A program made the translations under genes and the position numbers. Source: Escherichia phage vB_EcoM_WFbE185. From it: a stretch of DNA of 64,000 nt. Location: sequence record MK373778.1, one strand, 5' to 3'. A model generated the notes under the pieces. That model saw only the letters and a program-made list of their open reading frames with translations. It ran no database searches and was not told where the DNA came from. Below are positions 10,602 to 53,253 of this stretch, one piece after another (position 1 is the first letter of the stretch; each line of letters starts with the position of its first letter).

Positions 10602-10664
10602 GATATTTTCCTCATTTTAAGACGATAGGAAGATAATAACATGTCTTCCTATCGTTGTACATTA

Positions 10665-29369: not shown

Positions 29370-29828
29370 CTAGATTTTAATCACTGCTTTAGAAGCTTTT
29401 CCTGGTAGTCGTTTACTGTTAATAATAGCCATTCTACATTGAAGAGTCTTCATTTTAAATGCTGGATTTTCGCGACAAACTGTAAGTCCTAACCAAAGAT
29501 TTCCGTCAGTTATTTCTAAACGGCCCGGGCGATATTCGACACCTTCGTCAAAATCTTCATCAACATCTGGACGTGCCGGCATTGATAAAAATTCTGCAAC
29601 TTCTTTAACATGATTTTTTACTTTATGAAATAATTCAAAAACGTAATTCTCATCTATTTCTCTCTGGATGGCACGATCTAAGAGATGTTGAGAATACTTG
29701 ATATGAAAGCCTGGTAGTCCAAGAGACTTTGCAGCATCTTTTATACTGGCATTTATTTTGCGGAACTCCGTTTCAAAGATTCGACGGAGTTTATTACGGC
29801 GGATAAAAACGTCTGAATTGATAGTCAT
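29370..29828 (-). CDS. regB: Endoribonuclease RegB
   Basis: ORF track 29370..29852; from MTINSDVFIRRNKLRR...LKYSQHLLDRAIQREIDE matches remembered T4 RegB. Confidence 0.85.
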   Translation of the reverse strand: MTINSDVFIRRNKLRRIFETEFRKINASIKDAAKSLGLPGFHIKYSQHLLDRAIQREIDENYVFELFHKVKNHVKEVAEFLSMPARPDVDEDFDEGVEYRPGRLEITDGNLWLGLTVCRENPAFKMKTLQCRMAIINSKRLPGKASKAVIKI

Positions 29829-29856
29829 TTTGATTTCTCCTCTAGTTGACAAGTCT

Positions 29857-29885
29857 ATAGTAACACAACTAGAGGAGAAGTAAAC
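29857..29885 (-). promoter_or_regulatory. Sigma70-type early promoter nested in an 11-bp inverted repeat
   Basis: GTTTAC-17-TACTAT; arms TTCTCCTCTAG at 29835-29845 and 29869-29879. Confidence 0.5.
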
Positions 29886-29889
29886 TACT

Positions 29890-30105
29890 TTATTGATAAA
29901 ATGGAGTTAAAGCCCAAGATTCTTTAGATACCATATTGGCGAAATGCCTCATCTCTTCGATTTGGCGACGACGCTGGTCAGCATAGTCTTCTTCGCCTTC
30001 TTCCTTACAATCTTCAAGGTCTTCTTCAAGATACTTTAAGTATTCACTACAAATTTTGTTGACCTTTTCTTGAAAGTCCAATAACCCAGTAATAGTAGAA
30101 GCCAT
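29890..30105 (-). CDS. Hypothetical acidic protein, 71 aa
   Basis: ORF track. Confidence 0.45.
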   Translation of the reverse strand: MASTITGLLDFQEKVNKICSEYLKYLEEDLEDCKEEGEEDYADQRRRQIEEMRHFANMVSKESWALTPFYQ

Positions 30106-31834: not shown

Positions 31835-31911
31835 ATGAATTGTCCATTTCTGTATTTACCCCTCCAAGTAATTATGAATATACTATCACAATTCTAGGAG
31901 AAAGTAAACTG

Positions 31912-32544: not shown

Positions 32545-32958
32545 TTAGTAAATTGATTTACCATAGTATTTGTACCAAGTAGGACGTTGAGCAATTTTTT
32601 CGTCTAAGCGTGCTTGACTTATCGCAATGGACGCTTCGGACGGGACGTAATTATTACGAAATTCGGCAGGGATGTCGGAAATATCCTGGACTGTTGTGTC
32701 CTTGATTTTGAAACCACGTTTCAAACATTCGGCGATTAGCTCGATTTGACGTAAACGTAAAAATTCGAGTTTGTCGTAAAAGAATGTTACGTGACCTGTG
32801 CCTAAGATAAATGTTGGAGAGATTTTAAAATCCTTTACACGTTTACCGTTTTGAACATGTTTACGGACTGCACCAAATACGCGTGGTAATTCACGATACT
32901 CAGCCATAAGATGTTGGTCGGTCAGTTCAGAAACAAGTGTTAAATTGATACGAGTCAT
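32545..32958 (-). CDS. denV: Endonuclease V, pyrimidine-dimer DNA glycosylase
   Basis: ORF track 32545..32970; from [12 protein letters not shown]...[15 protein letters not shown] matches remembered T4 DenV. Confidence 0.9.
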
Positions 32959-33016
32959 AATTTCCTCCAAGTAGTTGATGAATGTATAGTATCAAAGTCC
33001 TTGGAGGAAGTAAACA

Positions 33017-43881: not shown

Positions 43882-43918
43882 TTTATTTCTCCGTTTACTC
43901 ATTTGTTTTGATAGGACT

Positions 43919-43948
43919 ACTATAACATAGTCCTATCATCATGTAAAC
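43919..43948 (-). promoter_or_regulatory. Sigma70-type early promoter inside perfect palindrome
   Basis: GTTTAC-18-TATAGT; arms GATAGGACTA / TAGTCCTATC at 43910-43937. Confidence 0.55.
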
Positions 43949-51279: not shown

Positions 51280-53253
51280 ATGGCAAACACTCCTGTAAAT
51301 TATCAATTAACCCGAACAGCGAATGCTATTCCCGAGATTTTTATCGGGGGCACATTTGCCGAAATCAAACAGAACATTATCGAATGGCTCAATGGGCAGA
51401 ATGAATTTCTTGATTATGATTTTGAAGGTTCGCGTTTAAACGTATTGTGTGACCTTTTAGCATATAACACTCTTTACATCCAACAGTTCAGTAATAGTGC
51501 AGTGTATGAAAGTTTTATGCGTACTGCAAACTTGCGTAGTTCTGTTGTACAAGCGGCTCAAGATAACGGATATCTGCCTTCATCTAAATCAGCAGCACAA
51601 ACAGAAATTATGCTCACATGTACAGATGCATTAAATAGAAACTATATCACCATTCCACGTGGCACTCGTTTCTTAGCATACGCTAAAGATACTTCTGTTA
51701 ACCCATATAACTTTGTTTCTACTGAAGATGTCATTGTAGTTAAAGACAAAAATAACCAATATTTTCCACGTCTTCGATTAGCTCAAGGACGTATTGTTCG
51801 CACTGAATTAACATTTGATAGATTAAAACCTATCATTATTCGTGATAAGAATATTGACCGTAATTTGGTTAAGTTGTATGTTGACGGAGCAGAATGGATT
51901 AACTGGACTCGTAAGTCGATGGTTCACGCTGGTTCTACGTCAACAATCTATTATATGCGTGAAACAGTTGATGGGAACACCGAATTTTATTTTGGTGAAG
52001 GCGAAATCTCTATTAACACGTCAGAAGGTGCGTTAACATCTAACTATATTGGTGGCCTTAAACCTGTTCAGGGTTCTAAAATCGTAATTGAGTATATTTC
52101 TACTAATGGCGCAGACGCTAACGGTGCCGTAGGATTTTCTTATGCTGATACATTAGCTAATATCACGGTGATCGATATTAACGAGAACCCTAGCAATAAC
52201 CCAGACTTTGTTGGGGCTGACGGCGGTGGTGACCCTGAAGATATTGAACGTATCCGCGAATTAGGCACAATTAAACGCGAAACTCAACAACGTTGTGTAA
52301 CCGCTTCCGACTATGACACATTCGTTTCTGAGCGGTTTGGTTCTATTATTCAAGCGGTTCAAACATTCACAGATTCATCTAAACCAGGGTACGCATATAT
52401 TGCTGCTAAGCCTAAATCTGGATTGTATTTGACTTCTGTTCAACGCGACGACATCAAAAACTATTTAAATGATTATAACTTAGGGACTATTACACCTGTT
52501 GTTATTTCGCCCGACTATTTGTTTATCAAAATGAATATCAAAGTTACATACGCGTTGAATAAACTTCAAGAATCAGAGCAATACCTTGAAGGACAGATTA
52601 TTAATAAGATAGACCGTTATTATATTGAAGATGTAGAAATTTTTAACTCATCGTTTGCAAAATCTAAAATGCTAACTTATGTCGATGATGCAGATATTTC
52701 TATTATTGGTTCTTCAGCTACTATTCAAATGGTTCGCGAAGTACAAAACTTCTATAAAACGCCTGAGGCCGGTATTAAATACAATAATCAGATTAAAGAT
52801 AGATCGATGGAATCTAATATATTCTCGTTTGATTCGCACAGACCTAATCCAGAAAATGCAAACGAAACTATTAAATATGGTGTTCGCATAGTATCTTCTG
52901 ACCGTAATGACCGTGGCATAGGTCAAGTTATTATTGGCCCATTTGCAGACGGCGATGTTGTTGAAAACGAAAATATACAACCTTATACAGGTAATGATTT
53001 TAATAAACTTACTGTTACTGACGGACGAAACAAATACTATTCAATTGGTGAAGTGAATTATCCTGCCGATTCGATTTATTGGAACATTGCTAAAATTGAC
53101 CTCACTTCAGACCGTTTTGAAGTTCAAACAATTGAACTTTATTCCGACCCTGCGGATGATATTATTTTTACAAAGGATGGTTCTTTAATCGTATTCGAAA
53201 ATGACTTACGTCCTCAGTACTTAACTATAGATTTGGAGCCTATTTCACAATGA
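51280..53253 (+). CDS. 6: Baseplate wedge protein gp6
   Basis: ORF track 51223..53253 trimmed to ATG 51280 (MANTPVNYQ); about 657 aa. Confidence 0.9.
   Translation: MANTPVNYQLTRTANAIPEIFIGGTFAEIKQNIIEWLNGQNEFLDYDFEGSRLNVLCDLLAYNTLYIQQFSNSAVYESFMRTANLRSSVVQAAQDNGYLPSSKSAAQTEIMLTCTDALNRNYITIPRGTRFLAYAKDTSVNPYNFVSTEDVIVVKDKNNQYFPRLRLAQGRIVRTELTFDRLKPIIIRDKNIDRNLVKLYVDGAEWINWTRKSMVHAGSTSTIYYMRETVDGNTEFYFGEGEISINTSEGALTSNYIGGLKPVQGSKIVIEYISTNGADANGAVGFSYADTLANITVIDINENPSNNPDFVGADGGGDPEDIERIRELGTIKRETQQRCVTASDYDTFVSERFGSIIQAVQTFTDSSKPGYAYIAAKPKSGLYLTSVQRDDIKNYLNDYNLGTITPVVISPDYLFIKMNIKVTYALNKLQESEQYLEGQIINKIDRYYIEDVEIFNSSFAKSKMLTYVDDADISIIGSSATIQMVREVQNFYKTPEAGIKYNNQIKDRSMESNIFSFDSHRPNPENANETIKYGVRIVSSDRNDRGIGQVIIGPFADGDVVENENIQPYTGNDFNKLTVTDGRNKYYSIGEVNYPADSIYWNIAKIDLTSDRFEVQTIELYSDPADDIIFTKDGSLIVFENDLRPQYLTIDLEPISQ

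Follow-up and report, generated by a model that had tools for sequence, protein, structure and literature searches.

A predicted hairpin between promoter spacer and Shine-Dalgarno sequence in the regB leader of Escherichia phage vB_EcoM_WFbE185 and related phages: a candidate promoter-dependent translational gate

In phage T4, the Shine-Dalgarno (SD)/AUG regions of e, soc, 49 and I-TevI are sequestered in RNA initiated upstream but become accessible when transcription starts at an internal late promoter, a gating logic that has been demonstrated for e and I-TevI (PMC3014915). T4 regB has a typical early promoter, which falls silent after 2-3 min (PMC3014915), and the same review, citing Piesiniene 2004, states that RegB cleaves the GGAG of its own SD, a trait conserved in 35 T4-related phages including RB69. 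That 2010 review of T4 post-transcriptional control does not place regB among the gated genes, and for regB gives only the early promoter and the SD self-cleavage (PMC3014915). Here we analyse a 64,000-nt stretch of Escherichia phage vB_EcoM_WFbE185 (sequence record MK373778.1), referred to in its full length as the window, in which the regB leader carries a perfect 14-bp inverted repeat that pairs the regB SD with the spacer of the gene's own early promoter. A first-pass annotation of this stretch had read the repeat as a promoter-dependent translational gate, and the computational evidence presented below supports that reading at the level of a predicted function.

The second relevant background is provided by the promoter-early stem-loop (PeSL) cassettes of T4-type phages, which combine an early promoter, a stem-loop and an SD (Arbiol et al. 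2010, Comeau et al. 2014; PMC2839356, PMC4122927). In the available passages of these papers, the stem-loops are located "between the -35 and -10 or overlapping the -10" and follow a T-even consensus AGNA-loop-TCNT; the authors ascribe to them roles in termination or attenuation and in recombination. The term "translation" is found neither in the accessible text of the 2010 paper nor in the 2014 passages.

Anatomy and predicted folding of the regB leader

The features of the locus are listed below in 5' to 3' order; coordinates are positions in the window, and all features lie on the minus strand.

29890..30105, minus strand: upstream open reading frame (ORF) at the vs.3 position, 71 aa, TAA stop at 29892-29890
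29880..29885, minus strand: -35 element (GTTTAC) of the T4-type early promoter next to regB, from direct reading and motif scan
29866..29879, minus strand: 5' arm (anti-SD) TTCTCCTCTAGTTG, which fills the promoter spacer, 14/14 complementary to 29848-29835
29849..29865, minus strand: 17-nt loop with TGn (29865-29863), the -10 element TACTAT (29862-29857) and the predicted start G29850
29835..29848, minus strand: 3' arm CAACTAGAGGAGAA, with the SD GAGGAG (29842-29837) and the RegB target GGAG (29840-29837)
29370..29828, minus strand: regB coding sequence, 152 aa, ATG 29828-29826, end coordinate including the stop; PF10715 REGB_T4, E=1e-69

The leader thus reads ...TCAATAAAGTA-GTTTAC-TTCTCCTCTAGTTG-TGT-TACTAT-AGACTTGT-CAACTAGAGGAGAA-ATCAAA-ATG. 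The two 11-bp arms first noticed here (29835-29845 and 29869-29879) are perfectly complementary as described, and the pairing extends 3 bp further to give 14/14 perfect bp (29879-29866 with 29848-29835) around the 17-nt loop. No other perfect inverted repeat with a 3-40-nt loop is as long anywhere in the window; repeats of at least 14 bp are expected from base composition at 0.02 per 64 kb (analytic), and none of 30 Markov-1 random sequences had one. The SD hexamer lies in the downstream arm, as had been claimed, but the 6 nt given as its distance from the ATG is that of the arm end, the hexamer itself ending 8 nt before the start codon. The assignment of the gene to regB held (PF10715), and the encoded protein is 98-99% identical to RegB of the Mosigvirus phages HX01 and JS09, Mosigvirus (RB69-like) phages being the nearest relatives. 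The listed ORF start, TTG 29852, was rejected in favour of ATG 29828 because the conserved SD and the conserved N-terminus MTIN... go with that ATG. An Rfam covariance search assigned the leader to no family, its sole match, RF02590, being a chance hit (E=0.17; 17.4 bits, where the gathering score is 208).

The upstream arm lies, as the first-pass annotation had stated, between the -35 and -10 elements of the proximal early promoter, flanked by the hexamers GTTTAC (29885-29880) and TACTAT (29862-29857), with an N17 spacer and TG at 29865-29864. This copy matches the UP/-35/TGn/-10 arrangement of T4 early promoters (PMC2988021), and the hexamer GTTTAC also precedes regB in T4 and most relatives. 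Scanning both strands of the window for the T4-type early-promoter motif [GA]T[TG]TAC-N17-18-TAnnnT yielded 28 minus-strand matches, the regB promoter among them, and 1 plus-strand match, an asymmetry that validates the scan as more than noise. A generic sigma-70 scan (TTGACA/TATAAT) of the window did not list the regB promoter, because the T4 -35 element GTTTAC poorly fits TTGACA. The late-promoter motif TATAAATA is absent from the regB loop, and the promoter is of the early sigma-70 type. The parallel drawn with T4 e, soc and 49 therefore stands in principle but not in timing: with an early internal promoter, the gate would separate immediate-early from read-through (delayed-early or middle) RNA, not early from late.

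Transcription from this promoter is predicted to start at G29850, the 7th nt after the -10 element, within the loop and 2 nt before the 3' arm, so that the 5' arm would be present only in RNAs initiated upstream. In about 24 of the 28 early promoters, an SD and start codon lie 20-25 nt past the predicted +1, making these highly stereotyped promoter-leader units, and the only T4-type early-promoter motif before T4 regB likewise has the 5' arm in its spacer. Folding of long versus promoter-proximal RNA had been named beforehand as a check on the gating proposal, and its outcome agrees with gating. In read-through RNAs of 171 and 321 nt, the minimum free energy structure contains the 14-bp helix, with a predicted probability of zero that any SD nucleotide is unpaired and a predicted free energy of -21.6 kcal/mol for the isolated hairpin. 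RNA starting at 29850 or 29852 forms merely an alternative structure of -3.7 kcal/mol in prediction. Both parts of the original proposal, an SD folded away in read-through RNA and left free by a start inside the loop, are thus borne out by prediction.

Several features of the locus are compatible with read-through into regB. Upstream of it, closely spaced genes share its strand, with further early promoters at 31909, 32274 and 33015 (minus strand), and terminator scans between these promoters and regB found no convincing minus-strand terminator, only two weak 5-bp stems within coding sequence. T4 early transcripts run on into downstream genes, and T4 has a middle promoter, Pvs.7, that is situated upstream of regB and fires in its direction (PMC2988021). 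We infer that such RNA also exists in WFbE185, where the region of the vs.3-position ORF would be the source of read-through transcripts carrying the 5' arm.

We propose that the helix forms only on upstream-started RNA and blocks the SD there, that proximal RNA is translated, and that RegB output is consequently set by the gene's own promoter; we assign this refined gating reading a probability of roughly 60%. On transcripts begun upstream of the early promoter, the spacer-encoded 5' arm would pair with the 3' arm, and the resulting 14-bp helix would bury the regB SD together with the GGAG cut by RegB, blocking both 30S initiation at regB and RegB cleavage at that site. RNA from the proximal promoter would begin at about G29850 in the loop and carry a 22-nt leader devoid of the 5' arm, with a free SD, and would be both translated and open to RegB autocleavage. 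The net effect would be to tie RegB synthesis to its own immediate-early promoter (in T4, off after 2-3 min) and to insulate it from delayed-early and middle read-through.

Conservation, covariation and exchange of cassettes

We compared 68 regB loci (20 from GenBank phages and 48 from IMG/VR), representing 49 unique leaders, and called a leader SD-sequestering if the probability of the SD being unpaired in the long RNA was at most 0.02. By this measure the SD is predicted to be sequestered in 31 of the 49 unique leaders, which span T4, T6, sb4, Mosigvirus, Gelderlandvirus, Winklervirus, JS98-like phages, EcS1, MHG19 and several further groups. These SD-sequestering leaders comprise at least 10 different arm sequences with compensating changes, including the following (5' arm / 3' arm):

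Window: TTCTCCTCTAGTTG / CAACTAGAGGAGAA
T4: TTTTCCTCTTGACTG / CAGTTAAGAGGAGAA (2 G.U pairs)
STML-198: TTTCTCCTCTTTATG / CATAAAGAGGAGAAA
X20: ATCCTCATTTG / CAAATGAGGAT
JS98-like: ATCTCCTGTAG / CTACAGGAGAT
L037 group: ATCTCCTTTTAGT / ACTAAAAGGAGAT
MHG19: ACTCCTTTGGT / ATCAAAGGAGT

In an alignment-free chimera test, the 5' arm of every clade was paired with the SD leader of every clade (13 clades). The mean 5'-arm/SD duplex energy was -17.8 kcal/mol for cognate and -10.8 kcal/mol for chimeric combinations; the cognate mean was reached in 0 of 100,000 permutations, and the cognate arm was top-ranked in 9 of the 13 clades. Pair types were counted in a register anchored on the invariant TCCT/AGGA core alone, and each of the positions +1 to +6 toward the loop is occupied by 3-4 different standard pair types. 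Paired cells make up 81% in register, against 23-46% with the partner slid by 1-3 nt and 51% with partners shuffled among phages, where 0 of 5,000 shuffles reached the observed value. In all hairpin leaders the predicted +1 follows the 5' arm by 13-24 nt and precedes the 3' arm by -1 to 10 nt, which places it within the loop or right where the 3' arm begins in 31/31; it is a purine in 30 of them. Taken as sequence evidence, the retention of this pairing between spacer and SD at regB in many phage genera shows that it is under selection.

The Karamvirus and Jiaodavirus leaders were not counted as support for covariation: their SD is partly paired and their cognate arms rank 10th and 13th of 13, although the Jiaodavirus leaders are still within the 31 that pass the threshold on SD pairing. 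Their regB promoters (Karamvirus leaders L008, L032 and L034; Jiaodavirus leaders L012, L056 and L057) carry a -10-centred palindrome, GGGCYATGATACTATRGCCC, rather than a specific anti-SD, and any pairing with the SD spans just 5 bp, foreign arms doing at least as well.

The same design recurs at denV (PF03013) in the window:

33010..33015, minus strand: -35 element of the denV promoter
33000..33009, minus strand: 5' arm
32986..32991, minus strand: -10 element
32962..32971, minus strand: 3' arm
ATG at 32958, minus strand: start of the 137-aa denV ORF

Here spacer and SD form a perfect 10-bp pairing, TTCCTCCAAG / CTTGGAGGAA (the SD lying within the latter), with a duplex energy of -18.7 kcal/mol and a predicted probability of 1.0 that the SD is paired with the spacer in the long RNA. 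A scan of T4 for the spacer-SD design returned regB (-21.6 kcal/mol), denV (-17.8 kcal/mol) and a gene with a promoter at 52866 (-20.0 kcal/mol). Among denV leaders from IMG/VR, the SD is predicted to be fully paired in the long RNA in 27 of 33 unique leaders, with several different arm sequences. The anti-SD of denV leaders sometimes lies between the -10 element and +1 rather than in the spacer, and is always upstream of the predicted start. We count the recurrence at denV, in the window, in T4 and in 27/33 leaders, as independent recurrence in favour of gating. Leaders with the anti-SD right after the -10 element (for example TAAGAT-GTCCTCC...GGAGGAC) comprise denV leaders L079, L081, L089-L091 and L103, and the Gaprivervirus-like regB leaders L009 and L043 contain a weak version of this layout; as such an anti-SD straddles the predicted +1, it would be missing from promoter-proximal RNA.

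The T4 gene (OZ209023.1, L069; promoter 52866, ATG 52808) is a 175-aa early gene with GTTCCTC.../...GAGGAAC pairing. Its counterpart in the window, an ORF of the same length (promoter 21841, ATG 21785), has a palindrome of the -10 type and is devoid of spacer-SD pairing, so that the type of cassette varies between phages for one and the same gene. Weaker spacer-SD pairing is seen at three other minus-strand promoters of the window, namely 41017 (TTCTTCT/AGAGGAA, before a 101-aa ORF), 11789 (ATCCTC.../...GAGGA, before a 60-aa ORF) and 26442 (TTCTCC/GGAGAA, before a 59-aa DUF7438 ORF).

In T4 and JS98, cassette identities across genes exceed the one within regB: JS98 regB and JS98 denV cassettes (L040 and L073, both on contig IMGVR_UViG_641509422) are 93% identical and those of T4 denV (L069) and JS98 regB 90% identical, compared with 68% between T4 regB and JS98 regB. 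These cross-gene identities imply that loci some 2.4 kb apart have exchanged cassettes or undergone gene conversion, and the window regB promoter region also matches the JS98 denV upstream region. The regB and denV cassettes keep the anti-SD, whereas most other early promoters of the window have a -10-centred palindrome, ATAGGRCTATGTTATAGT-AGTCCTAT. On this evidence, the promoter/hairpin/SD units look like exchangeable PeSL-like cassettes, and their design does not appear specific to regB. The -10-centred palindrome reads ATAGGRCTATG-TTATAGT in the spacer, followed by AGTCCTATCA, its 5' arm also lying upstream of the predicted start. Minus-strand examples are found at 43948-43909, 44279-44250, 37336-37307, 36041-36012, 25993-25964 and 10662-10622, and the only two other perfect inverted repeats of at least 11 bp in the window (10622-10655 and 43909-43938) are palindromes of this kind.

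Evidence against gating and rival explanations

Several observations weigh against gating or temper the evidence for it. (i) The hairpin is absent or non-specific in Gaprivervirus-like and phi1_146055-like phages, L058/59, Karam-, Jiaoda- and Krischvirus, and Aeromonas phages; with several regB-bearing lineages lacking it, the hairpin is widespread but dispensable, and not essential. (ii) The permutation and shuffle controls treat leaders without regard to phylogeny. (iii) Promoter-leader units do not follow their genes, and therefore part of the apparent covariation reflects replacement of whole cassettes, not stepwise compensation. (iv) RNAalifold on a plain MAFFT alignment of 21 leaders returned an empty consensus structure, because the lengths of arms and loop vary by 1-7 nt among clades and the paired columns fall out of register. 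(v) Sense and antisense hairpin stability, compared in order to tell an RNA structure from a DNA palindrome, do not discriminate overall (14 versus 15 leaders, Wilcoxon p=0.46). (vi) The stop codon of the vs.3-position ORF lies 4 nt before the -35 element and 10 nt before the 5' arm, and terminating ribosomes might open the base of the helix, making for a leaky gate.

The helix could instead serve mainly to shield read-through polycistronic RNA from RegB, and then from RNase E/G and 3' exonuclease decay, with silencing of regB as a side effect. Such protection would preserve downstream expression (the vs.1, vs, tk cluster) and is compatible with gating. The 3' arm buries the very GGAG cut by RegB, the same-strand genes downstream of regB are tightly packed, and RegB requires single-stranded RNA and is inhibited by structure, 16 structured GGAG sites of T4 being resistant (PMC1702504). 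However, denV carries the same hairpin though the T4 denV GGAG is a poor RegB substrate owing to its 3' context, and RegB protection therefore cannot be the general reason for the hairpin. At regB itself, consensus position 9 is a C in the window (GGAGAAAUCAA on the 3' side), which T4 RegB disfavours, and we regard protection as the main role of the helix as unlikely. RegB sites are characterised by a GGAG in an intergenic or SD position with an A-rich, C-poor 7-mer after it. In the window (29829-29840, minus strand), the 7-mer 3' of the regB GGAG is AAAUCAA, which places this C at position 9 of the consensus GGAGRAYARAA; cleaved T4 RegB sites have no C there, and T4's own regB site, GGAGAAUAACA, fits better. 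From these sequences, RegB of the RB69 type may prefer another 3' context, or WFbE185 may show weaker autocleavage.

Alternatively, the structure could be an ordinary PeSL stem-loop, an attenuator or terminator halting upstream transcription just before the resident early promoter. The PeSL layout is present at regB (an AT-rich segment, a TTTACW-N17-TAYWAT promoter, a stem-loop around the promoter, SD and ATG), and one RB49 PeSL terminated efficiently in a reporter (PMC2839356, PMC4122927). Yet the regB helix is followed by AUCAAAAUG, and with no U-tract and a 17-nt loop it is unlike an intrinsic (Rho-independent) terminator; nor was it reported by a terminator scan of the window. It reads TCCT-loop-AGGA, opposite in polarity to the T-even PeSL consensus, and a pure terminator would not need the SD as its 3' arm in lineage after lineage. 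We therefore give attenuation a low probability.

The repeat could also be a feature of the DNA, either a palindrome at which proteins bind or recombination occurs, or something left behind by the shuffling of cassettes; the pairing would then travel with mobile promoter cassettes and not be selected for a function in RNA. Such an origin would accord with the movement of cassettes between genes (JS98 regB and denV, T4 denV and JS98 regB), with the lack of overall sense/antisense discrimination, and with the different, -10-centred palindrome at many other early promoters of the window. Against such an origin, at least 10 unrelated arm sequences all stay complementary specifically to the SD flank, and the T4-clade hairpin relies on G.U pairs that are possible only in sense RNA (-21.6 kcal/mol, against -12.2 kcal/mol for antisense). 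A 17-nt loop is also unfavourable to cruciform extrusion, and transcription in the window is overwhelmingly one-stranded (28 promoters versus 1). Overall, we find an origin at the DNA level very improbable.

Translational coupling, in which regB on long RNA would need ribosomes finishing the upstream ORF to melt the helix, as at the MS2 coat-replicase junction, is suggested by the upstream stop, which in most leaders precedes the -35 element by 2-6 nt and the 5' arm by about 8-12 nt, but spacing is equally tight in leaders without the hairpin and so lends no specific support, and a terminating ribosome would, from its usual footprint, reach at most the first few of the 14 bp, leaving this the most improbable of the alternatives, with only a slight chance of being right.

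Significance and comparison with known systems

Many early T4 mRNAs are inactivated by RegB, a nuclease whose amount and timing have to be held within narrow bounds. Only two controls on it have been described so far, promoter shut-off and cleavage of its own SD, to which the hairpin, if gating is true, would add a third layer; gating would also explain how RegB synthesis is confined to the first minutes despite middle-mode read-through of regB. The denV design and the exchangeability of cassettes suggest a new reading of some PeSL stem-loops. More generally, small early genes could be insulated at the level of translation where tandem strong promoters and few terminators give nested transcripts. 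We tentatively suggest, as a possibility that we hold with less confidence than gating at regB itself, a general class of mobile "translational insulator" cassettes with an anti-SD upstream of an early +1, either in the -35/-10 spacer or between the -10 element and +1, through which regB, denV and others would be translated from their own promoter only, regardless of read-through coming from the many early and middle promoters upstream; a subset of PeSLs would then be gates, and the regB helix would also shield read-through RNA from RegB. Such an element could provide synthetic biology with a compact, portable "translate only from this promoter" part.

The accessible T4 reviews and literature do not mention the regB hairpin, which may have been noted earlier in older T4 papers. 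Among described elements, the PeSL cassettes share its layout: the regB unit, AATAAAGTA-GTTTAC-N17-TACTAT-22 nt-ATG, combines an AT-rich segment, early promoter, SD and ATG in one intergenic unit, and such units recur on one strand (28 in the window), with near-identical cassettes before different genes. The regB stem-loop extends across the promoter, the spacer holding its 5' arm, but continues at its 3' arm as far as the SD. The hairpins of regB and denV differ further in being of the form TCCT-loop-AGGA, with the SD as 3' arm and no U-tract, whereas the T-even consensus AGNA-loop-TCNT matches the -10-centred palindromes of most other window promoters. The likeness to RegB autocleavage lies in the identical GGAG of the regB SD; autocleavage acts on an exposed SD, whereas the hairpin would be a second, cis-acting layer that hides the site on read-through RNA. 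[quoted passage not shown]

The closest relation is to T4 e, soc, 49 and I-TevI. As in these genes, the regB SD lies in a helix whose 5' strand is upstream of an internal start, the structure is kept in related phages, and the long RNA would be silent and the proximal RNA translatable, which for regB is a prediction. The internal promoter of regB is early (GTTTAC-N17-TACTAT) and theirs is late (TATAAATA), making regB a variant in timing and not a strict member of the group: its gate would limit translation to immediate-early RNA, whereas theirs delays translation until late. The regB 5' arm also differs in being placed in the -35/-10 spacer, and the buried sequence in being the cleavage site of RegB itself. 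The regB hairpin is thus a candidate early-promoter case of the gating known from e, soc, 49 and I-TevI, one that resides in a mobile cassette of PeSL-like build and has its counterpart at denV.

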